Shown here piece after piece: positions 5,911 to 22,100 of a stretch of 64,000 nt of DNA; within the stretch, counting starts at the first letter, position 1, and every line of letters starts with the position of its first letter. The stretch lies in the NCBI GenBank assembly GCA_963745835.1, contig CAVUZH010000001.1:1-64000 (forward strand). Reading direction: 5' to 3'. The position numbers and the translations under genes were made by a program. The notes beneath the pieces are model-generated. The model was not told where the DNA came from. It did no database searches and worked only from the letters and a program-made list of their open reading frames with translations. The stretch comes from an uncultured delta proteobacterium (lineage in GTDB: Bacteria; Desulfobacterota; Binatia; UBA9968).

Positions 5911-6471
5911 TTACCCGGGTGGGATCTTGTCAACTAGTTTGCCATTGCTATAAAGCTCATAGCCTTTGACGCTCAATTCGTATCCACGCGGCGGATGGTC
6001 AGAGAAGTCAATGACGGTTAAGTCGAGCACCAGGACAGTTTCTCCGCGCGCTGCAATATCGAACGACAGCTTGACCGGCCCGATGGTATTTTTCACCGGT
6101 ACGCTACGTCGGTTTTTCTTGAGGAGACCGTCCACCGATTTGATTTTCAGATGGAATGCATCAAATGCTCCGGCATCGATGTCCGCCCGGAATATTTTGG
6201 CGCTTTGTTTGCCGACATATTTCGTAAGATCGAGAGAGGCTTGAGAAGGACTAAATTCCTTCCAACTAGTCTGCCAAAATCTCAATCCCGGTTTGGTACT
6301 GATGGCAATGCTGTTAATCGTTAGGAGCAACCGAGAAAAATCGTCGATTGCCTCGCGGTGATCCTTGATGCGGACTTCGAATGCGCCTTGCTCCGGTTGA
6401 CCAGCCAAACCGGGGGCAACCCAAAGCACCAGCAGAAGGAGGGTGTTAAGGAAACGCGAGTATGTCCTCAT
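5911..6471 (-). CDS. Exported DUF4382-like beta-sandwich protein
   Basis: Signal peptide (…APGLA/G); FEVRIKDH…FSRLLLTINSI…LDLTKY pattern resembles DUF4382; start overlaps the stop of the upstream SCO gene by 4 nt. Confidence 0.55.
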   Translation of the reverse strand: MRTYSRFLNTLLLLVLWVAPGLAGQPEQGAFEVRIKDHREAIDDFSRLLLTINSIAISTKPGLRFWQTSWKEFSPSQASLDLTKYVGKQSAKIFRADIDAGAFDAFHLKIKSVDGLLKKNRRSVPVKNTIGPVKLSFDIAARGETVLVLDLTVIDFSDHPPRGYELSVKGYELYSNGKLVDKIPPG

Positions 6472-7094
6472 TGCGGCCTAGGCTGACGGAGCCGCGCTAG
6501 ATCCTTCAGGACTTCTTTCTCCTGCCATTTGTCGCCGTAATAATCGACACGGCGAATCCCTCTTGAATCGATGAGTGTGGTAAGGTTGGTGTGCTGAATT
6601 TGTCCGTTGCCCAAATCTTTGACCGTCACGCCGAATTCTTTCCACACTTGCGCCAGCGCCTCGCGAGTGCCGCTGAGAAAATGCCAGCGCTCAAAGCCCG
6701 CATGGAAAGCCTGTGCGTAGGCTTTCATTTTTGCCGGAGTGTCTCGCGCCGGATCCGTCGTGATGGTCAAAAGAAGGTAATCGTCACGATTTTCCTCCTC
6801 TAGGATGCGCTGCATGGATGCCAATTTTGCTGTGAACAGAGGACAAACATCAGGACACGTGGTGTAAACAAACGTGACCAAGACGAGTTTCCCGCTGCCA
6901 GGGGTGAACTTAAAGGGCTTGCTGAATTGATCGATGAGGACAAAGCTCGGTGCCGGCGTGCTCGACTCCCTGCGGCCTATTTCGCCTTTTTTCGGTGGAA
7001 TCGGAATATGTGAAAAGACAGACGTCGACGACAGCAGGCCCACGCCCAAAAAAACCGCGGCAATCCACAGGCTAATGCGCAACTTGAAAGTCAT
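6468..7094 (-). CDS. SCO/SenC-family metallochaperone (copy 2)
   Basis: YTTCPDVCP (CxxxC), TTDPARDTP, QHTNLTTLID His ligand; signal peptide; ATG 7094 (alternative 7103). Confidence 0.9.
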   Translation of the reverse strand: MTFKLRISLWIAAVFLGVGLLSSTSVFSHIPIPPKKGEIGRRESSTPAPSFVLIDQFSKPFKFTPGSGKLVLVTFVYTTCPDVCPLFTAKLASMQRILEEENRDDYLLLTITTDPARDTPAKMKAYAQAFHAGFERWHFLSGTREALAQVWKEFGVTVKDLGNGQIQHTNLTTLIDSRGIRRVDYYGDKWQEKEVLKDLARLRQPRPQ

Positions 7095-7977
7095 AGGTGA
7101 CATTTAACTCTTTTATTCCTTCGGGAAGGTCGCCGCGCACCATATAAGTGGTCGAAAACTCCGACTCCTCACCGGGACGTAGTTCGACCGGAAGCAGCAA
7201 GGCGCACTCGATGATATCCAGATGCTCGCTGAGCTCGTCGGGCTCAATTCGATGAGTGATCCGAGTCGAGATCGTCTGCGTCGTTCGATTCTTGACTCGG
7301 TAGGCGATGGTGAAAAGTTCGCTTGGGCGGATTGTCGTGGCTTTGTTGACAGGCACCGCTTCGATGGATTGTGTCGGAGGCACTACCGCGTCATAACTCA
7401 CCCTGATCCCGGCAGCCCAATCGAGATAAACCCGCCAGCTCGTGCCTTCCTTCACCAAGGTAAATTCTTCTTCCCCCTCGATTGTTTTAATTTCACCGGC
7501 GCGATTCATTTGATCGAGCGTGGATAAAATTTCGCGCTGCATGGATGATGGCAAAGCGTTCAGCCGCTCTTCGTCCCATTCCAGCAGGATAGCCGACAAG
7601 CTATTCGCGTCGGGGTATTTAGCTTCAACTTTGACCCGCAATTGGCCGTTCTGTTCTCTTACGGTTTCCAGCGGTCGCAGTTCGATGAATTGCGCTAGCT
7701 TGCGTGTCACGGCAAGCGGAAAACCGCTGAAGGATCCTTTTTCGCGAACGTATATGCGCTCGGCCTTGAGCTGTCGATCGCCGAGGGAGATATACCGATA
7801 GGCTTTCTTGAAATCGCGCGCGTAGGAATTCTTGAGAAAAGCCTCGACGGTGTTGAACGCCTCTGTCTGGGGGCTGTGCTGCGGCGAGCTGCTCTTACTA
7901 TAGAGAAAAGCGGCCGGCAGAATCAGTATGAATGCCGCCGCCACACCTAAAAACCAACTTGTAGTTCGTGAGTTCAT
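7072..7977 (-). CDS. Membrane-anchored protein: NTF2-like domain + degenerate Cox11/CtaG-like C-terminal domain (paralog C)
   Basis: N-terminal TM; YARDFKKAYRYIS; C-terminal RPSELF…VKN…ITHRIEP…IIECALLLPVELRPGEE…VTYDF. Confidence 0.7.
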   Translation of the reverse strand: MNSRTTSWFLGVAAAFILILPAAFLYSKSSSPQHSPQTEAFNTVEAFLKNSYARDFKKAYRYISLGDRQLKAERIYVREKGSFSGFPLAVTRKLAQFIELRPLETVREQNGQLRVKVEAKYPDANSLSAILLEWDEERLNALPSSMQREILSTLDQMNRAGEIKTIEGEEEFTLVKEGTSWRVYLDWAAGIRVSYDAVVPPTQSIEAVPVNKATTIRPSELFTIAYRVKNRTTQTISTRITHRIEPDELSEHLDIIECALLLPVELRPGEESEFSTTYMVRGDLPEGIKELNVTYDFQVAH

Positions 7978-8060
7978 CCAATGTTTCTTGTTGAATCAGG
8001 CCTCCATTCGTTAATTCTGCGCTGAGAACTCGCGGACCCATAATCGGGCAGTGAGCTGGT

Positions 8061-8960
8061 TCAGTTACTGCCGAGAGTGACCGCATAGGTGACGTTTAGC
8101 TGACGCACTCCCTCCGGAAGGTTTCTTCTGAGAAGATAAGTGCTGACGAACTCTTCGTCTTTTCCAGGCGCTAATCGCACTGGCAAAAGAAAACCGCACT
8201 CAACGAGGTCTAGATAATCGCGAACTCCATGGGGATCGACTAAATGGCCTATGCGAGCGAAAAGCTGTTCCTGACTGGTATTTTTCACGTTGAGCACGAC
8301 TTTGAAGATTTCACCCGGTCGGGTTACCACATCCGAATGCGCGAGACGCGCTTCGACAGGAACTGAACTCGGAACCGAGGTTTGAAATCCGACGTTCACC
8401 GGCGATGCCCAATTCAGAAGAATCTTCCAGAAAGCCCCTTCTTTGGCCAATTCGAAAACATCCTCTCCTTGAATCATCTCAATTGCATGATTTCGACGCA
8501 GCTTGTCGATGCCGGCCAGCAGCGCTTTCCGCTCGGTCTCTGACAGCGCTTCCAGCTGGTCGATATCCCAATTGTGCAGCATCGGACCTAGCTTTTCGGC
8601 GTCCGGCACTTCGAACTTGATTTTTATTGTCGCTCGACCGTCAACGATCCGGGTCTCGACAGGCTTCAGTTCTATATAGCTCGCAAGGATTCTGGCGATC
8701 TCCAGTGTAAACCCGGTAAACGCGCCCCGGTCTCTGACATAGCTGGCGCGATCTTTTAGGCGCTGGTCGGGAGCGGCGATATGGGAGTAAGCTTCCTCAT
8801 AGTCTCTGGCGTAGGTTGCCCGAACATAGCGGTCCAACGTGCTGACCGCGTCCTGTTGGTCGGCAGCGACGGCGGAACGCATATCGAAGCTAGATAGCGC
8901 CAAGAGCGCGATTACAAACAAACCCGAACAGGAGCTTCGAGTCGATAAATCTCTTTTCAT
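8061..8960 (-). CDS. Exported protein: NTF2-like domain + degenerate Cox11/CtaG-like domain (paralog B)
   Basis: Signal peptide; YARDYEEAYSHIA; RPGEIF…VKN…IGHLVDP…LVECGFLLPVRLAPGKD…VTYAV. Confidence 0.7.
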   Translation of the reverse strand: MKRDLSTRSSCSGLFVIALLALSSFDMRSAVAADQQDAVSTLDRYVRATYARDYEEAYSHIAAPDQRLKDRASYVRDRGAFTGFTLEIARILASYIELKPVETRIVDGRATIKIKFEVPDAEKLGPMLHNWDIDQLEALSETERKALLAGIDKLRRNHAIEMIQGEDVFELAKEGAFWKILLNWASPVNVGFQTSVPSSVPVEARLAHSDVVTRPGEIFKVVLNVKNTSQEQLFARIGHLVDPHGVRDYLDLVECGFLLPVRLAPGKDEEFVSTYLLRRNLPEGVRQLNVTYAVTLGSN

Positions 8961-9018
8961 GCAACAGTAAATCCGAAGTAGCTGTACAACGAGGTTGTCA
9001 CCATTAACTTGTGTTTAA

Positions 9019-9600
9019 TTAAGGCGCTTTGGCTGGAATAATCCAAAGATAAATCGTGCGACCATTGACTCGCTCGGTCTTATCGGGTTTCCAATCACCC
9101 ATATCGAACGCGTGAGAGACCACCCGGGAACCTGGTTTGAGCTGTTTTAGGAGATTCGGTTTAAGCTTCAAGTTAACATCCGGCAAAAGGTACATCGTCA
9201 CCACTGTGGCCGGCGAGAGATCTACAGTTAGGATGTCCTGTTGCTTAATCTCAGCCAATTTTTCCAAACCCGCTTTGCGAATGCTCTCCCGCGACTCTTT
9301 GACGAGGTCGCCGTCGACGTCGAATCCTACCGCGCGGGCGCCCTTCTTGGCGGCGGTGATGACGATTCTGCCGTCGCCAGAGCCAAGATCGTAGACCACG
9401 TCGCCTTTCTTTACACCGCCAAGCTCAATCATTTTGTCGACGACCTCTTGCGGCGTGGGCACAAACGGCACGATTTTCTTAGATTCAAGATCCTGTGCGT
9501 GGGCAGTGCCCGGGAAGATTCCGAAACGGGCATACTGAAAGGATGAGAGGGCAAACACAACCAGAATTGCAGCCAGTGAAAGGCGATGTAGCGGTTTCAT
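9019..9600 (-). CDS. Exported class I SAM-dependent methyltransferase (FAM173-like)
   Basis: Signal peptide ending TAHA/Q; VPFVPTP, YDLGSGDGR, VVTMYLLP, LKPGSRVVSHAF; GGAGG SD. Confidence 0.88.
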   Translation of the reverse strand: MKPLHRLSLAAILVVFALSSFQYARFGIFPGTAHAQDLESKKIVPFVPTPQEVVDKMIELGGVKKGDVVYDLGSGDGRIVITAAKKGARAVGFDVDGDLVKESRESIRKAGLEKLAEIKQQDILTVDLSPATVVTMYLLPDVNLKLKPNLLKQLKPGSRVVSHAFDMGDWKPDKTERVNGRTIYLWIIPAKAP

Positions 9601-9672
9601 TTTCTAGCCTCCCTTTTGGTAATCAATGGTGTCCGAACCAATTAACCATAAAAAAAATCTAGTCGCCACTAT

Positions 9673-10311
9673 TTAGCTAACGCGGATCAAGGAGGGCTCG
9701 AGGCTCAATGCCCGCATATCTTTCAAAAAATCGCTGAACTGCCATTGCGGACCCAAAAAATTGATCCTGCGTGCGCCTTGGGCATCAATCAAGGTCGTTA
9801 AATTCGTGTGTTGCACCAACCCACGCCCTCTCCGGATCACTTGAACACCGAATCCTTTCCAGACATCTTTCAGGCGTGACTCATCGCCGGTTAAGAATGC
9901 CCAGTTTTGAAAGTCGGCGCCGAACCGTTGTGCATACGCCTTCAATACTTTCGGCGAATCAATTTCCGGGTCGGTGGTAATGCTCAAAAGAAAAGAATTC
10001 AGTTGAGTTTGGGTGCGAAGCGCTTGTTGCAGCCGGGCAAATTCCACCGTGAATAGCGGGCAAACGTCGGAGCAGGTGGTATAAATGAAATTCACCGCGA
10101 TGATTTTGCCGCGCAGTTTGATGTCGGCATCAAATGGATTACCTTCTTGATCTATCAACGTGAAAGAAGGCATCTTCGCGTTCGAGGTAACTCGACGGGA
10201 CGCTTCTGTTTTCGTCTTATCAGGCTCATGGGCTGTGACGGTGCTCGCAAACCACCCGGCAGTGAAGACGAGTAGCGTTACAAACCAGCTATTTTTTAAC
10301 TTCAAACGCAT
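9673..10311 (-). CDS. SCO/SenC-family metallochaperone (copy 1)
   Basis: YTTCSDVCP, TTDPEIDSP, QHTNLTTLID; signal peptide. Confidence 0.9.
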   Translation of the reverse strand: MRLKLKNSWFVTLLVFTAGWFASTVTAHEPDKTKTEASRRVTSNAKMPSFTLIDQEGNPFDADIKLRGKIIAVNFIYTTCSDVCPLFTVEFARLQQALRTQTQLNSFLLSITTDPEIDSPKVLKAYAQRFGADFQNWAFLTGDESRLKDVWKGFGVQVIRRGRGLVQHTNLTTLIDAQGARRINFLGPQWQFSDFLKDMRALSLEPSLIRVS

Positions 10312-11233
10312 AGGTGAGCGCCAGGTCTCGGAAGTTCTTCCGAACTGATTTTTCCAGCAGATAAGCCATCGAGAACTCTTGCTGGGTTCCCGGTTCGAGC
10401 ACCACGCGTTGGCCGAGACCGCAGTCGATCATCTCCAGATAATCGGCGGCTTGTGGCGGTTCGATCAAGTGGCGCATGGCCAGAACCACTCGTTGCCTGC
10501 CGCGATTATTAATTTTCAAGTTGACCTGAAAAGGCTCTTCCCCTCGGGTGATAATTTCTTGCTGTAAAAGTTTGATCTCAACGTCTGATCTTTCGGCCAA
10601 GACCGTATGCACTTTGACCTTCGTTCCGCCGGCCCAATCGTTAAAGATTTTCCAGGCATTTCCCTCTCGAATGAGCTCGAATGTCTCATGTCCCTGAATC
10701 CTCGGCAGATTGCCGCTTCGCTTTCGCTCAGCCAGCGCATCAAGCAATAGGGCTTGCTCCCCGGTCGAGAGTGAATTGAGCTTTTCTGAATTCCAGTCCC
10801 ATACCAGCGCCGAAACATCTTCGGACGCCGGTACAGAGTACTCGACTTTGATTTTTGACCGATCGCCCTCGGAGGATTCATCGATGAGATTCAAGTCCAT
10901 GAAATCAGCGAGTTTTCCGGCTAGCCGAGCTGTAAAGCCGGTAAACTCTCCTTGCCCTTGAACATAACTATCTTCATCGCGAACTCTTTGATCCGCCGCT
11001 GAGATATAGCCGTAAGCAGCCCGATAATCGCGCACATAAGTCGCCTTTAGATAAGAGCGGATTACCGCTAGCGGGTCGTTCGCTTCGGTTTGTTGACGCA
11101 CTCGGTCATGTAAGTGGACTGTAATTAAAGCCGTCGGAGCAAACAGGATCAATACGAGAAGAGTCTTGCGCAGTAGAGTAAGAACCGTAGGAAAGAAACG
11201 CGAAATTTGTCTTGCGTGCAATTTTGATCTCAC
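10289..11233 (-). CDS. Membrane-anchored protein: NTF2-like domain + degenerate Cox11/CtaG-like domain (paralog A)
   Basis: N-terminal TM; YVRDYRAAYGYIS; RGEEPF…INN…MRHLIEP…MIDCGLGQRVVLEPGTQ…LTYAF. Confidence 0.7.
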   Translation of the reverse strand: MRSKLHARQISRFFPTVLTLLRKTLLVLILFAPTALITVHLHDRVRQQTEANDPLAVIRSYLKATYVRDYRAAYGYISAADQRVRDEDSYVQGQGEFTGFTARLAGKLADFMDLNLIDESSEGDRSKIKVEYSVPASEDVSALVWDWNSEKLNSLSTGEQALLLDALAERKRSGNLPRIQGHETFELIREGNAWKIFNDWAGGTKVKVHTVLAERSDVEIKLLQQEIITRGEEPFQVNLKINNRGRQRVVLAMRHLIEPPQAADYLEMIDCGLGQRVVLEPGTQQEFSMAYLLEKSVRKNFRDLALTYAFEVKK

Positions 11234-11242
11234 TCGGAAAGC

Positions 11243-11683
11243 CTATTTGACGATAAAGGAGACTTGATCAATCGCGTCCAACTCGCTTTTATGATCCTCT
11301 GCAACGACACGTAGTTCCAAAATGTATTTCCCAGGCTTAATCCCGGTGAGCGTCCCTGTTTGGCTGTTGAACATTCCCATCAATTCGCCATTCACATAAG
11401 CATGCACATGGTGGCCCCGTTTTCCTTTGACTAGTTTAAACTCCAGGGGAATTTGGTCTTTGCGAAAAATCTGGTCTTTTGTCGGGGACAATATTTTCAC
11501 GCTGGCGCCATCGGCCGGCAATAGCTTGCCGCCTTGGCTGGCTCTGTCCGACTGGTTTGTCCGCCCGTCTTGATGCTGGTGACCCGACTGGGCTGCGACG
11601 GAATCATCACCAAAAAAAAGATTTGCCATAATGATGGCGCCGGCAATCAACGCTCTCAAAGTACGGTCAATTGATTGTTGCAT
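11243..11683 (-). CDS. Exported His-rich Ig-like protein (DUF4399-like)
   Basis: Signal peptide; GHQHQ, VKILSP, GHHVHAYVNGELMGM, KPGKYILEL, EDH. Confidence 0.6.
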   Translation of the reverse strand: MQQSIDRTLRALIAGAIIMANLFFGDDSVAAQSGHQHQDGRTNQSDRASQGGKLLPADGASVKILSPTKDQIFRKDQIPLEFKLVKGKRGHHVHAYVNGELMGMFNSQTGTLTGIKPGKYILELRVVAEDHKSELDAIDQVSFIVK

Positions 11684-11757
11684 TCATGCTCCCTCAGCTC
11701 ATCACTTCCCAACCTGGACAACCGCTCCAAGTTGGAGCAGCCGGTGCTCATAAAGAA

Positions 11758-12318
11758 TCATCTTCGTATACCGGCATTCATGAGCGCTGTCGATAACCGT
11801 TCCGGCGTGAGTGGGCCGATGATGATGTCGCGGATGATGCCTTGGCCGTCAATAAAAAAGGTCGCCGGCGGGCCAAAGATCCGATAGGCCCGCTTCACCT
11901 TGCTATTCAAGTCCAGCGCAATAGGAAGAGTAAGTTTAGACTCTTTAGCGTATTCTGTCACTGCGGCACGGCTGTCTTCGACGGCAATCGCAAGCACGCT
12001 GTAAACTTTGTTCCCCGATTGAGCCGCGAGTTCGTTGATAAGCGGCATCTCTTCCCGGCATGGATCGCACCAGCTAGCAAAGAAATTCATCACCAATGGC
12101 TTGCCACGGTAGCTGTCGAGGCTAATCGCCTTTCCATCGAGTGTTCGCAATTCAAAAGGAATACCCGGCATGCCGACCGTAGGCCCAACGTTTTGGACAG
12201 AAGGGTGAGCGTGCTGTGCTCGTCCGACGTCCGGCATCAGTGCAAATGCAAGAACGACTGCGCATAACCATGCTCTACCGGCACGCAGCCTCATAGCGGA
12301 TAGCTTTTTCTTGTTCAT
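11758..12318 (-). CDS. TlpA/ResA-family thiol-disulfide oxidoreductase
   Basis: NFFASWCDPCREEMP, GPPATFFID; signal peptide then QHAHP; 4-nt overlap with upstream gene. Confidence 0.92.
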   Translation of the reverse strand: MNKKKLSAMRLRAGRAWLCAVVLAFALMPDVGRAQHAHPSVQNVGPTVGMPGIPFELRTLDGKAISLDSYRGKPLVMNFFASWCDPCREEMPLINELAAQSGNKVYSVLAIAVEDSRAAVTEYAKESKLTLPIALDLNSKVKRAYRIFGPPATFFIDGQGIIRDIIIGPLTPERLSTALMNAGIRR

Positions 12319-13685
12319 CGTTCCACCGTCGCGCTTCGAAGCGCCACCCGGGAGTTCTCGCCGTCGGTTTCAGTCCAGGCAACATGCAGCCGATCTCTTA
12401 AAAGCGCCAGGACAGGACGGCTGGCGTTGCCTTCGGCGTTACTCACCTGCTGGATAGGTCCCCAAGAACGGCCATCAGGTGATAAAGTGCGAAGAAAAAT
12501 CTGCGCTCGGTTGTTGCTGTCGAGATTGCTCCAGGCCAGGTAGACTGTGTCGTCGTTGCCCAGTATTAAAGTTGAGTAGAGAATTTCCGGAGCGGTGTTT
12601 GCCTGCACTAGCCGCCGTGCTTGAAAGCTCTTACCGCCATCAGTAGAAACGCTGTAATAAATTCCTGCCTCACGTTCCGTCCGACCAAGCGTGAACCATG
12701 TCACGTGCAGCCACCCGCGAGAGTCTCGTCCGATGCTCGGACCCGAGTGCGGGCAGGAGGGAACTTGCCAGCCATCATTGCTGATCATTACAGGCGCGGC
12801 GAAGGTTTTGCCGCCATCTATCGACTTGCGCAACACATGGTTGCGAATTTGATTATCGTCTACTTGCCGATCAACTAGGTAAACTGTCTTGCCCCCATCC
12901 GCAAAAGCAACACCGAGCTTGCAACATTCGCACAGTCCTTTGCCCACCGAGTAATTCTTCGTGAGCTCTTTTCCATCCGAGTCGAGCTTCATCAGATATA
13001 GCTGGCGTGGGTTGGGATTATCTATTCGACGGTCGATCCAGGCCAGCAATACGCTACCATCGGGCGATACTTCAATGATCGGAAAACGCGCGGCATCTCC
13101 AACCTCATTGAGAGTTCGGGCCGGGCTGAAGCCGCCTTTTTCCTCTTCCATTGCGAAGCGGATGTTTGCGCGAGTTTTGTCGCCTTTTCCACCGGGGATG
13201 GACCACACGACATAAGCTTTGTTGTTCGCCCCGAATGCGACTTTGGGGCCGTTCTCTTCTTCTTGGATGGCCTCCACCGAGCGGTTCACCTGTTCGACCC
13301 AAGACCAAGTCTTGCCGCCGTCGATCGACGCCGCCAACAGCGTGTTACGCATGGGCGACGGCGCTATCCTGCCGGATTGGTGGTGTTGATGCATGGCGGA
13401 CTGAGTTTTCTGCGAGCTCGAGGTGTAGTCAGCTTCGGTCCAGATGGCGAACAATCGGCCATCCGGACTATAGCGGAGAAATGGAGTCGAAGGGTTGTTG
13501 TCGCTTTGTCCCAGGCGTTGCTCCGGGCCGAAGGCTAGAGTTACAGTGCGCCGGGAACTGCCGGGCGTGCTCCTATGACCGCTGCAAGCCGCTAAGAGTA
13601 GATACAGGGACAGCGCAAAAATCAGTGGCCCCGCCCGGAATGTCACAAAATCGATCCGAGGCGGAAAATGAGTTTTCCTGTTCAT
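12315..13685 (-). CDS. BNR/Asp-box beta-propeller lipoprotein (sialidase-fold) with CECCK and CPHSGP motifs
   Basis: Lipobox LAAC; Asp-boxes SIDGGKTW, SIDGGKTF, STDGGKSF; GGGAGG SD. Confidence 0.8.
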   Translation of the reverse strand: MNRKTHFPPRIDFVTFRAGPLIFALSLYLLLAACSGHRSTPGSSRRTVTLAFGPEQRLGQSDNNPSTPFLRYSPDGRLFAIWTEADYTSSSQKTQSAMHQHHQSGRIAPSPMRNTLLAASIDGGKTWSWVEQVNRSVEAIQEEENGPKVAFGANNKAYVVWSIPGGKGDKTRANIRFAMEEEKGGFSPARTLNEVGDAARFPIIEVSPDGSVLLAWIDRRIDNPNPRQLYLMKLDSDGKELTKNYSVGKGLCECCKLGVAFADGGKTVYLVDRQVDDNQIRNHVLRKSIDGGKTFAAPVMISNDGWQVPSCPHSGPSIGRDSRGWLHVTWFTLGRTEREAGIYYSVSTDGGKSFQARRLVQANTAPEILYSTLILGNDDTVYLAWSNLDSNNRAQIFLRTLSPDGRSWGPIQQVSNAEGNASRPVLALLRDRLHVAWTETDGENSRVALRSATVER

Positions 13686-14210: not shown

Positions 14211-14446
14211 AGTCTAAACCATTTATCAGTGATACCGTGATACGGCAATGTCGAGCGACCCGCATCATTATTAAGGTTTGAGCATGGAAGATCAATCAGG
14301 CTCGGCGAAAGCACAACGTTAAGCCGCCCTTTAGACGAGCCCGCCGCGCAAACTCTAAGTGATAGCAACCATCCCGCGCTGAAGAGAGATGATGGAGAAA
14401 GCTAGCGCGGAGCGCGTTACCCTCCATATAAAACGTTCTTCTGAGA

Positions 14447-15362: not shown

Positions 15363-16223
15363 CTAAGTATGCGGCGCGTGCGGGCGCTCGCCGATCATGA
15401 CCATGCCGTCATGATGAAACACGACCATTTCGCCTCGATAAGTCTCTTTAAGCACGGCGGCATTGAAGACTCGGTGCGGACGGCCTTCGGCGATCAAGCG
15501 CCGGTTCAGACAAACGGCCCAGGGAAGGTGGGCGGCCACCCAATTCAAATCGTGGGCGGTAATGACGATGGCAACCCCGCTGTGGTTGATCTCGTGCAGG
15601 AAGTGAATCACATCGTCGCGCGAGCGAATATCGAGTCCAGCGGTGGGCTCGTCGAGCAGGATCAGCTTCGGATTGCCTAAAAGGGCGCGTCCCAGGAATA
15701 CGGCCTGTTGCTGACCTCCGGAGAGTTCTCGGATATGGCGATTGCCGAGCCCGCTAAGATTCAGCCGTGCCATGACCTCCTTGAGTTTTTGCTTTTCTTC
15801 AGCACCGGGACCGCGAAACCAGCGATTGTTATTATAAAAGCCCATGGCAATCACTTCTTCGACGGTGATGGGAAAGTTCCAATCAATGGTCTCCAACTGC
15901 GGCACATAGCCGATCCGTTCCAATGAAGCTCGTCGCAGCTTCTCGCCATGCATCAGAATCTCGCCTTGCGTTAACGGGACCATCTTCAGGATTGTTCGCA
16001 GCAGTGTGGTTTTCCCGCCGCCGTTGGGCCCGACGATCGCCATGAATTGTCCCGGCCAGATCTTGAGCGAGAGGTTTTCCAGCGCGATGGTAGACCCATA
16101 GGCACTGCTGACATCGACCAATTCAATCAATGGGACTGTACTGGACGATGGCGCAACGCGTTCCTCAACGCCTGGAGGATGAAGACTCTGCGGGTCCCCA
16201 GGCCGGTGATCGTGCGGGTTCAT
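15363..16223 (-). CDS. Metal ABC transporter ATP-binding protein (ZnuC/MntA type)
   Basis: GPNGGGKTT Walker A, YVPQ, LSGGQ signature, LLDEPT; His-containing termini. Confidence 0.93.
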   Translation of the reverse strand: MNPHDHRPGDPQSLHPPGVEERVAPSSSTVPLIELVDVSSAYGSTIALENLSLKIWPGQFMAIVGPNGGGKTTLLRTILKMVPLTQGEILMHGEKLRRASLERIGYVPQLETIDWNFPITVEEVIAMGFYNNNRWFRGPGAEEKQKLKEVMARLNLSGLGNRHIRELSGGQQQAVFLGRALLGNPKLILLDEPTAGLDIRSRDDVIHFLHEINHSGVAIVITAHDLNWVAAHLPWAVCLNRRLIAEGRPHRVFNAAVLKETYRGEMVVFHHDGMVMIGERPHAPHT

Positions 16224-16236
16224 GCGTCGACCTGTT

Positions 16237-17250
16237 CTAATCCTTCCGCCGGTAATTGGCGTGGGAGCCTGCCACGGGTGAGGGATCGACCTTCCTTAAT
16301 GCTTCGGCAGAACCTCCGAGCGCTTCAAGCATAATGGAGAGATTTTCAAGCATCATACCTGTATAGGAGTGCTGCGCATCGCCGGGCTTGCCGGGCAGTT
16401 CATCGTCCCGGAGCTTATCGATGTAGCGGGTTTTCCCTTCCCGGGCTATCTGTTCGAGAACCGGACTGGGAAAAACTTCTGATCCGAAGACGGCAGGGAC
16501 TTTTTCTTTTCTGATCTGATCGATGAGCCTTTTTACCTCCCTAGGGCTTGGATCGGAGAAATCCGACGGCTGGACAGCGCCGATAATCTGAAAGCCATAA
16601 CGGCGTGCGAAATACGGCCACGAATCATGATACGTGAGCAGGCGCCGGTTACTTTCGGGTATCGTCCTAACCGATTCCTCTATTGCGCTGTCGAGCGCCT
16701 CGAGCTTCTTCAAGAACGTAGCCGCGTTTGCTTCATAGGCGCTCTTATTGTTGAAATCGAGGCGAATCAACTCGTCGCGAATCAGAGTAGCGTAACGCAT
16801 GGCGTGCTGGGGGTTGAGCCACAGGTGCGGATTTGGATGGCCATGCTCTTTGGGGAAACTGAAATCGTAAATATATTCCTTTTCGCCGATCGTCTTCTCG
16901 CCGAGAAGAAGCAGCGCGACGCCTTTTTTCATATTCGCCCGCGTTAGATTCAGCGTCGGAATCTCGAGATCCAGCCCATTGCCGATGAGCAGGTCCGCCT
17001 GCGCAAGTAACTTGACGTCTGACGGCACCGGCTCAAACGTATGAGAATTGATTCCTTCGGGAATGATTCCGGTGAGACCAATTTTATCACCTCCGATATT
17101 CTCGACGATGCTGGTGATCGGCGCGACGGTGCTGACCACGTTTAGCCTTTCAGCCTTGATGGATTGTTTATCTTCCTGTCGGCTGCAGGCATTGATAACG
17201 CATGCTAAGACGACAACAACCAGGTAAAAGAACTTGCCTTTATATTTCAT
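16237..17250 (-). CDS. Cluster A-I metal-binding lipoprotein (ZnuA/TroA family)
   Basis: Lipobox INAC; SHTFEP, PNPHLW, YHDSW ligands. Confidence 0.92.
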   Translation of the reverse strand: MKYKGKFFYLVVVVLACVINACSRQEDKQSIKAERLNVVSTVAPITSIVENIGGDKIGLTGIIPEGINSHTFEPVPSDVKLLAQADLLIGNGLDLEIPTLNLTRANMKKGVALLLLGEKTIGEKEYIYDFSFPKEHGHPNPHLWLNPQHAMRYATLIRDELIRLDFNNKSAYEANAATFLKKLEALDSAIEESVRTIPESNRRLLTYHDSWPYFARRYGFQIIGAVQPSDFSDPSPREVKRLIDQIRKEKVPAVFGSEVFPSPVLEQIAREGKTRYIDKLRDDELPGKPGDAQHSYTGMMLENLSIMLEALGGSAEALRKVDPSPVAGSHANYRRKD

Positions 17251-17261
17251 GGGAAGCTTGT

Positions 17262-18095
17262 CTATCTCCGAAGCCGGAATCGGTAAACGTAGGTGAACTC
17301 GGCCGGGACATTCTTGCCGTCGTTCTGGGCAGGCTCGAAACGGGCCTGCTTCACTGCCTTCAGGGCCTCATCGTCGAAACCGGCGCCGCCGCTTTTGATG
17401 ATTTCTGCATCGGTTACGGTTCCTCTGCTGTCGATTGTGATTCTTAAGGTAACGTCGCTTTCTAGTCCCATGCGCAGAGCCATGGGTGGATAGGTCGCCC
17501 GAACAGTTTGCACTGGCTTGGCTTCGCGTCCGGTGCGAACCGGACTTGTCGGTGTCGGCAGACCCGATGTTCCTGAATCTCGCCCTAACCCGGAAGACGC
17601 AGTGCCACCACCTCCTGCTGATCCGGGAATGTTCCCCAACTCTCCCTTGCCGAAAAGGTTCTCCGCCCCGGCCTCGGCGCCACCAACTTCGGTCGGAGCG
17701 GTCGGATATTGTGGCACTGCATTCTTTCCCAAAGTGGTGTGAGACTGGCGCGATTCCACAGCTTCCTCTGTCGGAGGCGACGTAACTCCTAAGGGGGGAG
17801 CTTGCTCAGCGGGTGGTTTCTTGGCTACGAGCGCGTCTCTTTCGGGTTTCGGTAATTTAGGTTTAGGAGCAGCCAGCGACGGTTTCTTAACCGGGTTTGG
17901 TGTCTCTTCTCGTCGGGGGGGCGTTTCTTGCTTTACAAGGGGCAATTCAAGAAGTCCGACCGGAATCAACTCCCGATGGCGCCGAGTGCTGTCGTCGTTC
18001 TTAAACGCCGTCGGCGCCACAATCACGACGACCGCGTGGATCAGGCATGAAGCAACCAGGGAGAAAGCCAGCCTGGAATCATCTATCAAAATCAT
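17262..18095 (-). CDS. tonB: TonB energy transducer
   Basis: TM with SCLIH (SxxxH), Pro-rich spacer, C-terminal YPPMALRMG…FDDEALKAVKQARFEPA. Confidence 0.88.
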   Translation of the reverse strand: MILIDDSRLAFSLVASCLIHAVVVIVAPTAFKNDDSTRRHRELIPVGLLELPLVKQETPPRREETPNPVKKPSLAAPKPKLPKPERDALVAKKPPAEQAPPLGVTSPPTEEAVESRQSHTTLGKNAVPQYPTAPTEVGGAEAGAENLFGKGELGNIPGSAGGGGTASSGLGRDSGTSGLPTPTSPVRTGREAKPVQTVRATYPPMALRMGLESDVTLRITIDSRGTVTDAEIIKSGGAGFDDEALKAVKQARFEPAQNDGKNVPAEFTYVYRFRLRR

Positions 18096-18223
18096 AATGT
18101 AGCTTTACAGCGGGACCATGACCTCGCCGACTTTGAGAATAAGATCGATTAACCGCAACATATAAAACTTTTATTCCTTACTTGCGCGAGCGGTCGTTTT
18201 CAATGCTGACTGACGTCTCAGCC

Positions 18224-20263
18224 TTACCAGAAGTGAATCGTTATACCCCCCTTGACGGTGAAGGGATCGCCGGGAGTGAAATGTGAATCAAGAGTTCCAA
18301 CCCCGGATGGTTCCGTGGAAAGTCTCGACTCAAATACGTGCTCCGCCGAACGCCATTTAGTGTTGGCCAGGTTTTGAAACTCCACGAAAAATTCATAGCG
18401 CTGCCAAACGTATTTCAAAAAAAAATCGAAGATAGTCGAAGACGGGGTTTTGATGCTGCCGTCTTCGATACCGTAGCGGGAGCCGACATGGCGCATTTGC
18501 AAGCGGCCCTGAACGCCGGATTCATGGCGCGCGGTGATTCCCGTGAACGCCAGAAAGCGCGGCGCCAGGGGAACTTTGTCGCCGTTGGTAAATTTTGCCC
18601 AGGTATACGAAAGGTCGAGATCGTAGGACAGCCACGGCAGAATATCGTAACGGACCTCGCTCTCAATCCCATGGCGGTTGCTGGGCCCCGCCGGCTCGAA
18701 GGTTCCTTCGTCGCCAACGAAGACGAGCTCGCTTTCCAGGTATGAACGCCAGTAGGCGAACGTGACGTCCAGGCGATCGAAAAGCCGCGTTTTGGAACCC
18801 AGCTCGCCGCCCCAAAACCGCGGGATTTTTTCGTCGGGATCCTGGACGAAAACACGCGCGTCGTTACTGTGAAAACCGCCGCCAAAGTTTAAAAACAAAT
18901 TAGTTCCTTTGACGGCATTGGTATCTTGAAACGGCGTGAAAATAAAATTGAGCTTGGGATTAATGATGGAGGCAGAACCGTTGCCGGAAATCGGGTTGCT
19001 CATACTGCCCGAATCGCCGATCTGGTCCACATCGTACCAGAAATTATCTAGCCGAACTCCGAGTTGGGTGCGTAGCCAGGAGGTGGGCTTGATTTCCTGT
19101 TGAGCGAACCAGCCCAGATTGGTTTGACGTACTAAATTGTTGCTTCTGGTCTCGAGACGCTCGCGCTCCCTTTGATCAAATAGACCCACACGGATGTGGT
19201 CGAACCGGCTTTGAAAACCGACGAACGTCTCCATCGGCAAACCCCAAACGTTATAGCTCCGTCGATAATTAATGTTATTGCCGATTAAAAAACGTTTGTC
19301 CTTTTGCTCGATGCCGTCGCCATTCACCTCGTCATTGAGAAATAGTGTAAAGTTCGACCAAAGTTGGAGCGTGTACCATGAAGCCCAGGTCTGAGCATTG
19401 AAGCTCTGATTGGCGTCCGTATAGTTGTAAAGCAGACTCAGATTTTGCCGTTCCGACTTTCCTCCCTCACTCGGATCGAACGATCCGAAGCGACCGATCT
19501 CGCCGCTACGAACCGCGCGTGCGGGCAGCTCGCCGGACGCATCCCAAGCGGTCTTGAAGAACGTGCCGAGGAAGTTCAAATTTGAATTCGCCGTCGACAG
19601 CAGACCAAACTTGGCGAGCAGGTTATATCGGTTGTAATTGTTTTCACTCTTGAAGGGTCCGTCATTATGATAAAACTCGCCGGCGATAAAGGGACGCAAG
19701 GGGGTTCCTTCGGGCGGTGATAGGATGCCTACGTAACGCTGCGTGTTATAACTTCCGCCGCTCAAAGTGAGCGTGCTGTCTTTGTCACTTTTTTTGGTGA
19801 TGATGTTCATGGCGCCCGATGTGGCGAAGTCGCCGAGATGCGCAAAATACGGTCCCTTGTATATCTCCACTCGATCGATGGTCTCGGGAATGAGCCAGTG
19901 CATATCGGCGTATCCCTGACCATGCGCATGGCTCACCATGTTTACCGGCATGCCGTCGATAAAAACCGCATAGTCGGTGCCGTGATCGGAATCGAAACCG
20001 CGAAATAGAATCTGGTCCGCTTTGCCGCCACCATGATGCTGGCCGATAGTCAAGCTGGGAGTCAGGCGCATGACGTCGCTCGGGGTATTCGATGGTCGTA
20101 GCTGCAGGTCGCGCTGCCATCGGGTCTGCTCCGTTGCCGCGGAGGTGGGCTGCTGGCCCCAGATATAGACCTCTTCAACCGAAGAATCCGCTTCTGCCGT
20201 ATGGGCGTTGGCATAGCTCCAGGCCGATACGAGCGCGAGCAAAAGCAAAGCTGCAACGGGCAT
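18224..20263 (-). CDS. TonB-dependent outer-membrane receptor (probable metal uptake)
   Basis: Plug QHHGGGKADQ…RGFDSDHGTD…SHAHGQGYAD…KGPYFA; beta-barrel ending in aromatic residues (IHFW). Confidence 0.9.
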   Translation of the reverse strand: MPVAALLLLALVSAWSYANAHTAEADSSVEEVYIWGQQPTSAATEQTRWQRDLQLRPSNTPSDVMRLTPSLTIGQHHGGGKADQILFRGFDSDHGTDYAVFIDGMPVNMVSHAHGQGYADMHWLIPETIDRVEIYKGPYFAHLGDFATSGAMNIITKKSDKDSTLTLSGGSYNTQRYVGILSPPEGTPLRPFIAGEFYHNDGPFKSENNYNRYNLLAKFGLLSTANSNLNFLGTFFKTAWDASGELPARAVRSGEIGRFGSFDPSEGGKSERQNLSLLYNYTDANQSFNAQTWASWYTLQLWSNFTLFLNDEVNGDGIEQKDKRFLIGNNINYRRSYNVWGLPMETFVGFQSRFDHIRVGLFDQRERERLETRSNNLVRQTNLGWFAQQEIKPTSWLRTQLGVRLDNFWYDVDQIGDSGSMSNPISGNGSASIINPKLNFIFTPFQDTNAVKGTNLFLNFGGGFHSNDARVFVQDPDEKIPRFWGGELGSKTRLFDRLDVTFAYWRSYLESELVFVGDEGTFEPAGPSNRHGIESEVRYDILPWLSYDLDLSYTWAKFTNGDKVPLAPRFLAFTGITARHESGVQGRLQMRHVGSRYGIEDGSIKTPSSTIFDFFLKYVWQRYEFFVEFQNLANTKWRSAEHVFESRLSTEPSGVGTLDSHFTPGDPFTVKGGITIHFW

Positions 20264-20305
20264 CGTGAAGGTTTCTCCCGCTACGCACGATTTTTCGTTT
20301 TCTGC

Positions 20306-21574
20306 TTAATGATGGCTCTGAGCGACAGCGCCGGGTTGTTGACCGGTGGCGATTCTATGGAAGCGGCCGAACAGCACGCAGGCACTAGCCAAAATGAACG
20401 AGGCTGCCATCGCGACAAAAGCGACGGTCAGTCCTAACCACTCGCTCAGGTAACCAACCGCGGGTGACCAGAAGGCGCCGGCGAGGAAAGTTGCGGTATA
20501 GAACCAGGCAAAGCCGGTGTCGCGACTGCTATCCGAGGTGGTATGGGTGACCAACGTTTGCAGAATTGGGTGGGTCCCAAATGCCGTCACGCCCAGTACT
20601 AATGAAGCGATGGCGACACCTACATAACTGCTGCCCAAGGCAGGAATGATCAAAGTTGTGAGTGCTGAAAGCAGATAGGCGGTCAACAAGACTCGTTGGG
20701 GGTGGTAACGATCGGCTAGTTTACCGCCGAGCATGGGGCCGAAAATGCTGCCGATGTTCATCAAGGTAAAAACAACCCCGATGGCGGTGGCATCCATACC
20801 GAGATTGTGGCTCAAGTACAATGGAAGAAAGCTGGAGATAATGCCGTGACCGGATCCGCCGGCTGCGACGATCGCTGCAATCAAAATCCAGCGTAGGTTT
20901 CGGTTGGCGATCACCTGGCCGCTGTCCTGCCAAAATGTCGATGTCCTGGCCTCGTGGCGGATTTGGCTAGTCGCGGGATCCTTCAGCCACAGCGACATGG
21001 CGACACCGACCAAAATCGCCGGAACCGCGAAAAGAATGACCGTGCCGCGCCAGCCCCAGAGAGAAATCAGGATCGCGGCACACAGCGGGATCATCGCTGT
21101 TCCGATATTGCCGGCGGTGAAGTGAGTGGCCAGCGCGGTGCCGAGTTTTCGCTTCTTAAAGTGATGCGACAACAAGGAGGCCCCGACGGGGTGTTGGGCG
21201 GCTCCGCCGACCCTGGACATGACCGTCCAGAAGAAGAACTGAAAATAGCTCTGCGCGAGGCCGACAAAAACAAAGCAGACTCCGACACTGGCGTTCCCGA
21301 TGCCGAGGATTTGATGGCGCGGCAGGATTCGTCCCAGCGCGCCGGCACCAAGTTGCAGCAGTCCGCCGACGGCGCTTGCCACTCCGAGCATGATGCCGAG
21401 TTCACCATAGCCAAAGTTGAGATCGCGCAGCACGAGGGGAAATACCAGCGGCTTAAGCGCCCCCTGCGCATGATTGATTCCGTGTGCCAAGCTGACGAGG
21501 GTCAGCGCGGCCGACGAGCGCGCGCTCGCATCATCTGCGACGGCGATGTCGTGAACGTGCTCTGGTGATTTCAT
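20306..21574 (-). CDS. MFS transporter (Fsr-like)
   Basis: About 12 TM; LAHGINH, QHP, GGKLADRY motif. Confidence 0.88.
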   Translation of the reverse strand: MKSPEHVHDIAVADDASARSSAALTLVSLAHGINHAQGALKPLVFPLVLRDLNFGYGELGIMLGVASAVGGLLQLGAGALGRILPRHQILGIGNASVGVCFVFVGLAQSYFQFFFWTVMSRVGGAAQHPVGASLLSHHFKKRKLGTALATHFTAGNIGTAMIPLCAAILISLWGWRGTVILFAVPAILVGVAMSLWLKDPATSQIRHEARTSTFWQDSGQVIANRNLRWILIAAIVAAGGSGHGIISSFLPLYLSHNLGMDATAIGVVFTLMNIGSIFGPMLGGKLADRYHPQRVLLTAYLLSALTTLIIPALGSSYVGVAIASLVLGVTAFGTHPILQTLVTHTTSDSSRDTGFAWFYTATFLAGAFWSPAVGYLSEWLGLTVAFVAMAASFILASACVLFGRFHRIATGQQPGAVAQSHH

Positions 21575-21592
21575 TTCAAAGCTCCGCTTATC

Positions 21593-21619
21593 GTAGCAAC
21601 AATTTGAAAAAGGTGTTAC
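21593..21619. promoter_or_regulatory. Putative NikR operator overlapping the MFS/TBDT promoter
   Basis: GTAGCAA-N13-GTGTTAC; overlaps a minus-strand extended -10 TG-C-TACGAT. Confidence 0.65.
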
Positions 21620-21635
21620 CCGTAAATAAAATTTT

Positions 21636-22052
21636 TTAATGCTTCAGTTCCGGCGAAGTCGTCACCAGCTTGCCGTTTTGCACCCCTTTGGTCGCTATCA
21701 GTTTACCCGCAATCTCGTGCACCTTATCGCCGCGTCCGCGGATGACAATCACCTCCAGACAATTATGCTCGTCCAGATGAATGTGCAGGCTGGCATTCAC
21801 TGTAACCTCGGCTTTGTGCTGCATATCGGCGAGAACATCACTGAGTCTGTGGATCCGATGGTCATAGACTAGCGTCACTACGCCGATGACCTCAGAGTCG
21901 CCCTGACCCACTCGCTTCTGGATTAGGTGATCGCGAATCAAATCGCGAATTGCTTCCGAGCGGTTTTGGTAGCCTAGGCCGTCGATGCTATGATCGAAAG
22001 CACTCAGAAGATCTTCTTCGAGCGAAACGCCAAAGCGGGAAAGATGGTGCAT
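21636..22052 (-). CDS. nikR: Nickel-responsive regulator NikR
   Basis: RHH MHHLSRFGVSLEEDLL…GYQNRSEAIRDLIR; Ni site QH…HIH…C (MQHKAE…LHIHLDEHNCLE); ATG 22052. Confidence 0.95.
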   Translation of the reverse strand: MHHLSRFGVSLEEDLLSAFDHSIDGLGYQNRSEAIRDLIRDHLIQKRVGQGDSEVIGVVTLVYDHRIHRLSDVLADMQHKAEVTVNASLHIHLDEHNCLEVIVIRGRGDKVHEIAGKLIATKGVQNGKLVTTSPELKH

Positions 22053-22073
22053 TGATTTTCCTGAATATGTGGC

Positions 22074-22100
22074 GTAACACGTTTTTTTTATTTGTGTCAA
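22074..22100. promoter_or_regulatory. Putative NikR autoregulatory operator overlapping nikR -35
   Basis: GTAACAC-N13-GTGTCAA; right half is TTGACA on the minus strand. Confidence 0.65.

Follow-up and report, generated by a model that had tools for sequence, protein, structure and literature searches.

A NikR-headed gene cluster of an uncultured Binatia bacterium places a probable nickel importer ahead of periplasmic proteins related to copper toolkits

We analysed a stretch of 64,000 nucleotides (the window) from contig CAVUZH010000001.1 (here C1) of an uncultured delta proteobacterium of the Binatia (assembly GCA_963745835.1), in which 18 co-oriented genes occupied the minus strand between 5911 and 22157. 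The proteins encoded in the window were named by Pfam and NCBIfam profile searches, and all 18 genes were placed as an initial annotation, made from the letters alone, had described them, with short gaps or overlaps between neighbours. Namely, the spacers ranged from -32 to +128 nt, with one larger gap of 236 nt between the ZnuB-type gene and the leader gene, and gene ends overlapped at Cox11-like A/SCO1 (23 nt), Cox11-like C/SCO2 (32 nt), SCO2/DUF4382 (4 nt) and BNR/TlpA (4 nt). The cluster was composed of two separable units. Unit 1 contained nikR and the genes for a major facilitator superfamily (MFS) transporter, a TonB-dependent outer-membrane transporter (TBDT), TonB and a ZnuABC-like ATP-binding cassette (ABC) importer. 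Unit 2 began with a leader gene ending in a RAPP motif and continued with the genes for a BNR propeller, TlpA, a His-site domain protein, three Cox11-like proteins, two SCO proteins, a methyltransferase and a DUF4382 protein. Since this arrangement was found again in 39 loci of genomes and also in contigs of metagenomes, it was not due to chance. Our tentative reading is that the whole cluster forms one nickel-responsive metal acquisition operon of two tiers (Tier 1, 22052-14447; Tier 2, 14210-5911).

The first gene of Unit 1 was nikR (21636..22052, minus strand, as for all cluster genes below), encoding a nickel-responsive ribbon-helix-helix repressor. Its product matched RHH_1 (E 6.5e-8, 32.7 bits) and NikR_C (E 4.5e-27, 94.5 bits) and scored 174.4 bits against the NCBIfam equivalog NF003381, for which the cut-off is 105. 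The likely start codon was at 22052, corresponding to M36 of the open reading frame (ORF) 21636-22157, since the PDB and NCBIfam alignments began there. The closest solved relative was the NikR of P. horikoshii (2bj1, E 1e-36, full-length alignment), with identical H..HxH..C columns, and the residues H79, H90, H92 and C98 were kept in 5/5 orthologs. We take these H, H-x-H and C columns to be the high-affinity nickel ligands. The gene was present in one copy in the 7.28-Mb assembly.

Two NikR boxes were found at the 5' end of the cluster. Box 1 (22074..22100) read TTGACAC-N13-GTGTTAC on the gene strand and was located 22 nt 5' of the nikR ATG, where it overlapped a TTGACA hexamer resembling a -35 element inside a 168-bp region shared with a divergent ModA-like gene. 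Box 2 (21593..21619; GTAACAC-N13-TTGCTAC on the gene strand) started 17 nt past the nikR stop codon and ended 19 nt before the MFS start. Thus, the two matching palindromic operators proposed earlier for nikR and the MFS gene were both present, but they were imperfect: relative to the reversed orientation GTAACAC-N13-GTGTTAC with a 13-nt spacer, each combined one 7/7 with one 5/7 half-site. In half-sites, spacer and reversed orientation the boxes matched the delta-proteobacterial NikR signal of Rodionov and colleagues, for which the relevant passages of PMC545781 give GTGTTAC half-sites, a 13-nt spacer and a reversed form in Desulfotalea. Box 1 was conserved 37-52 nt upstream of nikR in 20/21 orthologous loci (18/19 when two unpublished genomes were excluded), and a box at +19 to +24 past the nikR stop was found in 8/21 (6/19 with the same exclusion). 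NikR is predicted to bind both boxes in a nickel-responsive manner. The divergent ModABC-like and cytochrome genes share the region of box 1, and NikR may therefore act in both directions.

A scan of the whole genome for NikR boxes with at most two mismatches returned 41 matches. Sites of the reversed N13 type numbered seven in the 7.28 Mb at this threshold, and two of them were those flanking nikR. Eight of the 41 matches were examined, of which six were within ORFs, one was at a gene junction and one was intergenic. The intergenic box (C3:1115685, before PPK2-PhoX) was considered as a second NikR target and was taken as a chance occurrence, so that no convincing second target emerged among the eight matches examined.

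The remaining genes of Unit 1 encoded uptake proteins. The MFS transporter (20306..21574; MFS_1, 9e-47) had four histidines (H31, H35, H128, H151) that were conserved in 7/7 orthologs. The TBDT (18224..20263; Plug 1.9e-15, barrel 1e-16) resembled solved transporters of its class in the plug region only (BtuB, E 1.4e-11), and the TonB gene (17262..18095; TonB_C, 6.7e-20) had itself as its sole tblastn match in the genome. These were followed by the genes for a substrate-binding lipoprotein of cluster A-I, that is, of the ZnuA/AztC/PsaA type (16237..17250; ZnuA, 7.1e-68), an ABC ATPase of the ZnuC type (15363..16223; ABC_tran, 1e-31) and an ABC-3 permease of the ZnuB type (14447..15283; ABC-3, 9.9e-65). 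The ligand columns of the binding protein held His70, His142, His208 and an Asp, with a His at the position of the PsaA Glu (the PsaA ligand positions used for this comparison are those we presume), and further histidines (His138, His294, His330) were invariant. By score the protein was not an ortholog of a named zinc or manganese protein, the best NCBIfam match being AztC (178.6 bits, where the cut-off is 350). The same contig contained another, distant ZnuA/ZnuC pair (C1:158544-160039; 27% and 35% identity), which may be an ordinary zinc importer.

We consider Unit 1 to be probably a NikR-repressed nickel importer of an uncharacterised type, built on a ZnuA-family binding protein. The NikR regulons of delta-proteobacteria and Helicobacter pylori, as described in the literature, comprise nickel-repressed uptake genes including TonB-dependent receptors, and nickel-active TBDTs are mentioned in PMC11247825. 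Similar to these regulons, the window had intact NikR ligand columns, GTGTTAC half-sites with a 13-nt spacer, a box over the promoter of nikR itself, and TBDT and TonB genes downstream. In contrast to them, the importer was of the cluster A-I ZnuA type rather than NikABCDE, NikMNQO or NiCoT, no gene for a nickel enzyme or its accessory proteins was nearby or found in the genome, and eleven periplasmic genes resembling copper toolkits followed. An alternative is that copper or zinc is the metal of the entire cluster, and that its NikR homolog senses this metal or responds to nickel merely as an interfering ion. This would fit the His3Asp ligand set, which is of the zinc/TroA/AztC type, the copper families of Unit 2 and the lack of a classical nickel enzyme among those searched in the genome. 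However, the ligand columns of NikR and the half-sites of its operators were of the nickel-responsive type, the second ZnuA/ZnuC pair was available elsewhere on the contig, and related NikR-ZnuA units were found with a bicupin (locus L116) or a porin (the distant NikR-porin-ZnuA locus L153) and not with copper genes. We regard this alternative as improbable.

Between the two units there was a gap of 236 nt (14211..14446). A promoter-like site was located in it at 14295-14267 (a consensus match only), and the gene strand had no site resembling a terminator. In other genomes the corresponding junction was often shorter, namely -4 to 132 nt between ZnuB and the first Unit 2 gene in 10/17 genome loci, with ORF starts called mechanically. 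Past the gap, Unit 2 was headed by the gene for a predicted exported arrest-peptide leader resembling CruR and CutF (13800..14210). The initial annotation had called it a RAPP leader of the DUF2946 kind. The RAPP part of this description held well, since RAPP-x-x-stop formed the C-terminus in 19/21 leader orthologs (RAPP-Q-A-stop in the window), but the match to DUF2946 (PF11162) reached only 16.7 bits and was below the gathering score of 23.7. All 21 copies had the same architecture: a hydrophobic segment at the N-terminus, an invariant PHRVHH motif, a His-rich stretch that varied, and a single Cys that was invariant. The latter was the remnant of a CXXC motif that was replaced by CxxQ/L (CxxQ in the window), and it was located 47 residues before RAPP as counted on the window sequence.

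As reported in passages of PMC9426467 and bioRxiv 10.1101/2025.02.05.636593, CruR and CutF are exported arrest peptides with RAPP near the C-terminus that are encoded first in operons for periplasmic metal handling, where copper controls the downstream genes; in CruR, 45 residues separate CXXC from RAPP, which corresponds to 48 residues after the first Cys. Like CruR (Bordetella bp2923-bfrG-bp2921) and CutF (Rhodobacter cutFOG), the window leader was small, had an export signal-like segment and a RAPP near the stop codon, and stood first before periplasmic metal genes. The distance from Cys to RAPP was similar to that of CruR, and a spacer of 114 nt separated the leader from the BNR gene. On the other hand, the window leader differed from both in its sub-threshold Pfam score, the change of CXXC to CxxQ/L, the addition of PHRVHH and the His-rich stretch, and its position, which was downstream of a NikR-controlled unit in a longer series of co-directional genes. 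Leaders with His-rich motifs only, located beside HupE/UreJ genes, have been proposed to be nickel or cobalt sensors in the part of bioRxiv 10.1101/2022.11.11.516240 that deals with them.

Seven leaders (those of L028, L030, L031, L033, L035, L043 and L052) had a second Cys ten residues on (C-x9-C-H/Y/L/Q). These leaders preceded CopC/DUF4198/CopD genes or a reduced module, and the leaders before BNR-TlpA had Ser, Ala or Thr at that position. From these residues we predict two leader subtypes that likely use different ligand sets. A stem-loop hiding the BNR gene's ribosome-binding site was also considered. The 3' end of the leader (CCUCCC) was predicted to pair with the BNR Shine-Dalgarno sequence, but the pairing was no better than that of shuffled sequence (z -0.39 in the window; mean z -0.43 over 16 leaders) and the idea was dropped.

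Unit 2 encoded three proteins related to Cox11, namely Cox11-like A (10289..11233), B (8061..8960) and C (7072..7977). They scored 42.8, 31.3 and 27.3 bits against CtaG_Cox11 (PF04442; cut-off 25), with the match confined to the C-terminal 110 residues and to profile positions ~30-146; against the Cox11 equivalog of NCBIfam, they reached 43.8, 34.9 and 28.2 bits and remained below its cut-off of 162. The profile of the family matched S. meliloti Cox11 (1SO9) with an E value of 2e-13. In front of the Cox11 fold, there was an extra N-terminal domain of ~150 residues of unknown kind. The invariant Cys (present in 75/77 sequences) corresponded to the first Cys of the Cox11 CFCF motif. In place of the second one, Leu or Phe was found both in the family consensus and in all three copies of the window. 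In addition, a His located one strand earlier was invariant (77/77).

The two SCO proteins, SCO1 (9673..10311) and SCO2 (6468..7103), matched SCO1-SenC with E values of 1.1e-27 and 4.5e-25. Both had the canonical CxxxC and His, which were kept in 62/62 sequences; the canonical role of SCO proteins is to bind copper and deliver it to CuA. Thus, the proposal that Cys ligands had been partly swapped was borne out for the Cox11-like proteins (CFCF to C-x-L/F plus His) and for the leader (CXXC to CxxQ/L), but it did not extend to SCO. In both SCO proteins, a His directly followed an A/S-x-A/S site resembling that of signal peptides (VFS-H, VTA-H), and such an N-terminal His would add a non-canonical SCO ligand. 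His32 of SCO2, near the predicted mature N-terminus, was invariant in 23/23 orthologs.

Upstream of these genes, the leader was followed by a BNR/sialidase-like beta-propeller lipoprotein gene (12315..13685; BNR_2, 3.4e-9) and a gene for a periplasmic thiol-disulfide oxidoreductase of the TlpA/ResA type (11758..12318; AhpC-TSA/Redoxin, 7.8e-25; WCDPC). The propeller had BNR repeats and a propeller profile match, together with the invariant motifs C252-x-C254-C255 and C311-P-H313; CxCC and CPH marked a large subfamily. In TlpA, C84 and C87 were present in 14/14 sequences, and the scores were below the equivalog cut-offs. A homolog of the propeller (P0136) carried a C-terminal fusion to a TlpA-like thioredoxin domain (WCEPC). 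Since P0136 fuses the two, the view that BNR and TlpA form a functional pair was supported. The propeller was also compared with AztD-like chaperones; NCBIfam AztD gave no match at E <=0.01, and the comparison was left as an analogy only.

The exported protein of 146 residues that the initial annotation had called a His-rich Ig protein (11243..11683) belonged to no Pfam family, and we refer to it as the His-site domain protein. In orthologous clusters, the corresponding domain forms the C-terminus of a fusion with CopD; here it stood alone, and its H92-x-H94, M104 and D130-H131 were invariant. The last gene of the cluster (5911..6471) encoded a DUF4382 protein (7.4e-9), in which K-D-H38-R and H159 were conserved. 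No solved relative was retrieved by sequence with a profile of either the His-site domain or DUF4382. A further gene (9019..9600; Methyltransf_31, 2.1e-9) encoded a class I S-adenosylmethionine (SAM)-methyltransferase fold that was preceded by a segment resembling a signal peptide; export of such a fold would be unusual. The family had at least 12 paralogs in the genome with 38-67% identity, including one in the window at 1112-1711 on the plus strand, and the nearest NCBIfam model, an archaeal protein-lysine N-methyltransferase, remained below its cut-off.

Taken as a whole, Unit 2 is a putatively leader-gated set of periplasmic chaperones and thiol-redox proteins descended from copper toolkits. 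Passages of PMC6669012 describe TlpA-ScoI-PcuC as a route of CuA assembly. In comparison with the TlpA-ScoI-PcuC-CoxB, pcuABCDE and Cox11 systems of Bradyrhizobium and Sinorhizobium, Unit 2 had in common a TlpA-type reductase, SCO proteins with CxxxC and His, a Cox11-fold domain and, in orthologous clusters, CopC and CopD. It was different in the N-terminal domain and the C-x-L/F plus His site of the Cox11-like proteins, which occurred in one to three copies with genes overlapping SCO genes, and in that Unit 2 had no Pfam match to PCuAC, was not beside cox genes and was linked to NikR. The orthologous clusters also related Unit 2 to capture proteins of the DUF4198 family. According to parts of PMC12537917, a member of this family binds nickel with a Kd of 18 nM and the genomic neighbours of the family include NikR and TonB receptors, and a Neisseria member captures zinc as described in parts of PMC12663993. 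No DUF4198 gene was present in the window. In many orthologous clusters, however, DUF4198 genes were interleaved in Unit 2 between two CopC genes. Both the nickel-binding IsDUF4198 and the zinc-binding Zcp resemble the Unit 2 proteins as periplasmic metal holders for importers or clients, but the candidates of the window have SCO, Cox11 and other folds.

In order to follow the distribution of the module, we scanned one genome per species, anchoring the loci on the alignment of the Cox11-like family and annotating them by BLASTP against the window proteins. Among the candidates scored, 405 Cox11-like relatives were found at E <=0.001, and the best 120 were at least 48% identical. The few relatives with a name were labelled as Candidatus Binatia or Polarisedimenticolaceae. 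The 39 loci belonged to metagenome-assembled genomes of Binatia, Deltaproteobacteria, Syntrophobacteraceae and Thermodesulfobacteriota, plus one Chloroflexota and one Burkholderiales, and in a sample of 401 genomes from the GTDB phylum of the window the family was present in the genome of the window only. One Cox11-like copy was found in 12 loci, two in 13 and three in 12. The gene order recurred with variation, BNR-TlpA being present or absent, and many loci had extra genes: DUF4198, two CopC, the CopD-His-site fusion, a further methyltransferase, and a third SCO with VKOR and rhodanese genes behind it. The latter trio ended Unit 2 in many related genomes, and here it was located on another contig (G000:C4:24127-25822). 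In the divergent position, other genomes had a cytochrome c-SCO pair. A compact form of the module was found in L141, with the order NikR-ZnuABC-His domain-Cox11-like-DUF4382-SCO-VKOR.

NikR was detected in 21/26 genomes with the module, with one match in each. In 15/26 genomes it was encoded upstream of the module and shared contig and strand with it; a contig end intervened in seven, and four had no NikR there on long contigs. A second, independent sample consisted of metagenome contigs anchored on the binding protein, which had more than 527 relatives among the matches listed. Of 80 such contigs, 28 were informative, and in 26 of these a Unit 2 gene was found within 4 kb downstream of ZnuB; NikR was upstream in all four contigs with at least 6.5 kb of upstream sequence. 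Thus, the linkage of the module to nikR that the initial annotation had suggested looking for was found in both samples, with seven of the 26 genomes undecidable. The opposite pattern, modules mostly without nikR and beside cox genes, was not seen: cox genes adjoined the module in one of the 39 loci, the 29%-identical Burkholderiales locus L053, which was the most distant homolog and was located near cbb3 oxidase genes.

Each unit also occurred alone, and we therefore regard the nikR-uptake block as a cassette that in most members of this clade is located between the divergent promoter region and the Unit 2 leader. In L020, L024, L031 and L043, neither NikR nor Unit 1 was present and Unit 2 came immediately next to the divergent cytochrome c-SCO pair, and the assemblies of L024 and L043 (G406 and G419) had no NikR at all. 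Conversely, Unit 1 was found without Unit 2 in L110, where genes for resistance-nodulation-division (RND) efflux followed, and in L116, where unrelated genes followed. The order in L116 was NikR-MFS-AAA ATPase-bicupin-methyltransferase-ZnuABC. There, an AAA ATPase and a two-cupin protein (L116:7173-9158) replaced TBDT and TonB, and they may be a nickel-dependent cupin enzyme with its helper.

Such solitary units suggested a different explanation of the cluster, namely two independent systems: a nickel importer (Unit 1) and a copper-starvation set of the PcuC/ScoI/TlpA/Cox11/CopCD kind (Unit 2) serving oxidases or cuproenzymes, whose adjacency would result from common ancestry in the clade or common use of TonB rather than from one shared metal. 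In this case, it would be expected that each unit has a regulatory device of its own, as is indeed observed, and the promoter-like site in the 236-nt gap would be the start of the second transcript. The canonical sites of SCO and CopC point in the same direction. So do described operons headed by DUF2946, which carry Sco, PCuAC, CopC and AhpC_TSA genes according to excerpts of PMC9426467 and bioRxiv 10.1101/2025.02.05.636593, as well as the CuA route of TlpA-ScoI-PcuC cited above and the location of L053 near cbb3 oxidase genes. However, the two units were adjacent and co-oriented in 26/28 informative contigs and 15/26 genomes, and their junctions were as short as -4 nt, although Unit 2 itself was much rearranged. 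In addition, the leader lacked CXXC, the Cox11-like proteins lacked CFCF, DUF4198 of a nickel-binding family was present between CopC genes, and the module was away from cox genes in 38/39 loci. On balance, two independent systems are possible, and our tentative preference stays with the single nickel-responsive operon.

It should be emphasized that a number of observations weigh against this single operon. Every family in Unit 2 is known from copper biology. The SCO proteins are canonical without exception, the invariant Met of the His-site domain is of a kind often seen in Cu(I) sites, and the CopC proteins of orthologous clusters, which also contain CopD, had a predicted N-terminal His1 and D-x-H, a canonical Cu(II) site (we take His1/D-x-H to be the Cu(II) site of CopC, in line with PMC12537917). 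On the side of Unit 1, the His3Asp site of the binding protein is of a type known for zinc. NikR boxes were confined to the 5' end, and none was found before Unit 2 in the window or in the 39 related loci; the junction of 236 nt with its promoter-like site and the loci with only one of the units belong here as well. No extracytoplasmic client was identified. Finally, the genome bin was 97% complete with 9.3% contamination, which is a caveat on all absences stated for the whole genome.

The search for nickel enzymes covered NiFe hydrogenase, urease, carbon monoxide dehydrogenase (CODH)/prismane, LarA, acireductone dioxygenase (ARD) and nickel superoxide dismutase (NiSOD). In the genome of the window, family searches found no NiFe hydrogenase, CODH/prismane or LarA, a marginal partial match only for urease alpha (contig C12) and a sub-threshold match only for ARD. 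NiSOD was also not found by a family search, which had no positive control, and the motif was absent in a motif scan as well (the motif used is the one we assume for NiSOD). Among 25 genomes with the module, hydrogenase matches were present in five and urease matches in five, and LarA and prismane in none. Thus, the classical nickel enzymes, for which the initial annotation had recommended a genome-wide search, were absent here and rare in other module genomes. Its remark that no oxidase, urease, hydrogenase or NiSOD gene was in the window agreed with these searches, since COX1 genes were located on contigs C5, C14, C15 and C22 and none on C1.

Five genes for heme-copper oxidase subunit I were found on these other contigs, with SCO beside one of them. 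At the same time, canonical Cox11 was absent from this genome and from 23/24 other module genomes, the exception being G426 (Burkholderiales). The Cox11-like family was the sole Cox11 relative found here and in 21/24 other module genomes, and two others gave no match. Because canonical Cox11 was missing and five heme-copper oxidases were encoded, the Cox11-like proteins could be chaperones of the oxidase CuB site, which is a further point in favor of two independent systems and against a single nickel operon.

Overall, the idea of a copper toolkit redeployed for nickel gained from the linkage to NikR and the altered leader and Cox11-like proteins, but the SCO and CopC sites had remained canonical and the units proved separable. 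Joint action of the units under nickel limitation is suggested by how closely and how often anew they have come to lie side by side, by a leader without CXXC and Cox11-like proteins without CFCF, by DUF4198 genes interspersed in related clusters and by the failure to find known nickel enzymes. A continued service of Unit 2 to copper is suggested by SCO and CopC sites of canonical form, by the occurrence of each unit alone and by the absence of a canonical Cox11. For Tier 2 taken separately, we lean, with reservation, towards a role in nickel handling or nickel limitation; a role in copper handling is also possible.

If the cluster is indeed a single nickel-responsive operon, it could work as follows. 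At low cytoplasmic nickel, apo-NikR would leave its two boxes and the operon would be transcribed. The TBDT with TonB would carry a metal, Ni(II) being the likeliest, to the periplasm, and the His-rich cluster A-I binding protein would hand it to the ABC permease. By analogy to CruR and CutF, ribosome stalling at RAPP, modulated by metal bound to the nascent chain, might set the expression of the downstream genes. A periplasmic relay formed by the Cox11-like/SCO pairs, the His-site domain and the DUF4382 protein would capture the incoming metal, with TlpA and the CxCC/CPH propeller keeping the Cys ligands reduced, and would then deliver it to one of two recipients, the binding protein or a client outside the cytoplasm.

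A variant of this scheme is that Unit 2 acts as a selectivity guard. Under nickel limitation, it would bind periplasmic Cu(II) and Zn(II) that otherwise outcompete nickel, and the copper-type sites would have been kept on purpose. The presence of canonical copper sites beside a nickel-regulated importer would be explained in this way, and parts of PMC12663993 provide a precedent in periplasmic capture proteins (Zcp, FutA2) with which one metal is buffered and the import of a different one facilitated. However, direct evidence for a guard is lacking, up to eleven genes would be a costly one, and Unit 2 also exists without Unit 1. There is only a slim chance, in our estimate, that this variant is correct, and we return to the relay within a nickel-responsive operon as the preferred scheme.

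A bolder version of the relay would be that soil bacteria without classical nickel enzymes run a periplasmic nickel-trafficking pathway, with re-tooled Cox11-like, SCO and His-site folds, a NikR-controlled feed, a nickel-sensing RAPP peptide and an undescribed client. We consider this version unlikely as it stands. A conceptual precedent for a periplasmic need for nickel comes from cable bacteria, in which a periplasmic nickel cofactor is described and RcnA export, not a cluster of this kind, is proposed in passages of PMC11247825.

Several observations indicated that the cluster is found in soil and may be expressed there. Six studies of soil or rhizosphere included 14 runs with near-identical DNA (at least 0.63 of sampled words). 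When the cluster was divided into 30 bins, contigs of at least 90% identity from four RNA libraries of soil fell into 19 to 26 of them, including genes of both tiers, and some crossed gene junctions of Unit 2 at 6698-7733 and 9237-10283. They were a weak sign of expression, as DNA can be present in such libraries. The stretch 14211-14446 was spanned by none of the RNA-library pieces listed; as these were short contigs, this weighs neither for nor against one transcript.

With respect to the surroundings of the cluster, a terminator-like hairpin with a T run was located at 5863..5879 on the minus strand, 32 nt past the last gene, as found by a consensus scan only. An Rfam search of the cluster returned no riboswitch. 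On the other side, divergent ModABC-like genes (SBP_bac_11, permease and ATPase) were followed by a c-type cytochrome gene (22221..25306, plus strand; the cytochrome at 24788-25306). A complete rRNA operon was found 9 kb from the cluster (30921-36409), with 16S at 30921-32478, two tRNAs at 32663-32840, 23S at 33005-36008 and 5S at 36294-36409. The presence of this operon accounts for a stretch of the window that is free of ORFs and skewed in GC, and its location on contig C1 could anchor the taxonomy of the contig.

Each part of the cluster has a known relative, namely the NikR regulons, the CruR/CutF leaders, the TlpA-Sco-Cox11 systems and the periplasmic capture proteins. A literature search returned no paper on the cluster or on an association of Cox11 with NikR, the supplements of the CruR, CutF and DUF4198 papers being outside this search. 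Only if a nickel pathway in the periplasm were demonstrated together with its client would the cluster be new in category. Dedicated periplasmic chaperones have been defined for copper, and to our knowledge no dedicated periplasmic nickel chaperone is known. For zinc, none had been defined, as stated in a passage of PMC12663993.

On a cautious reading, Unit 1 would probably be a nickel importer of a new type, in which a cluster A-I ABC system is under NikR control and has a TBDT and a TonB to itself, while Unit 2 would provide a natural variant of the CruR/CutF sensors without CXXC and a Cox11-fold family with a Cys/His site. If Unit 2 does handle nickel, it would be the first multi-protein candidate for periplasmic nickel delivery and would imply an unknown extracytoplasmic use of nickel in abundant soil bacteria. 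The cluster suggests that nickel or copper is handled outside the cytoplasm in a way that has so far not been described.

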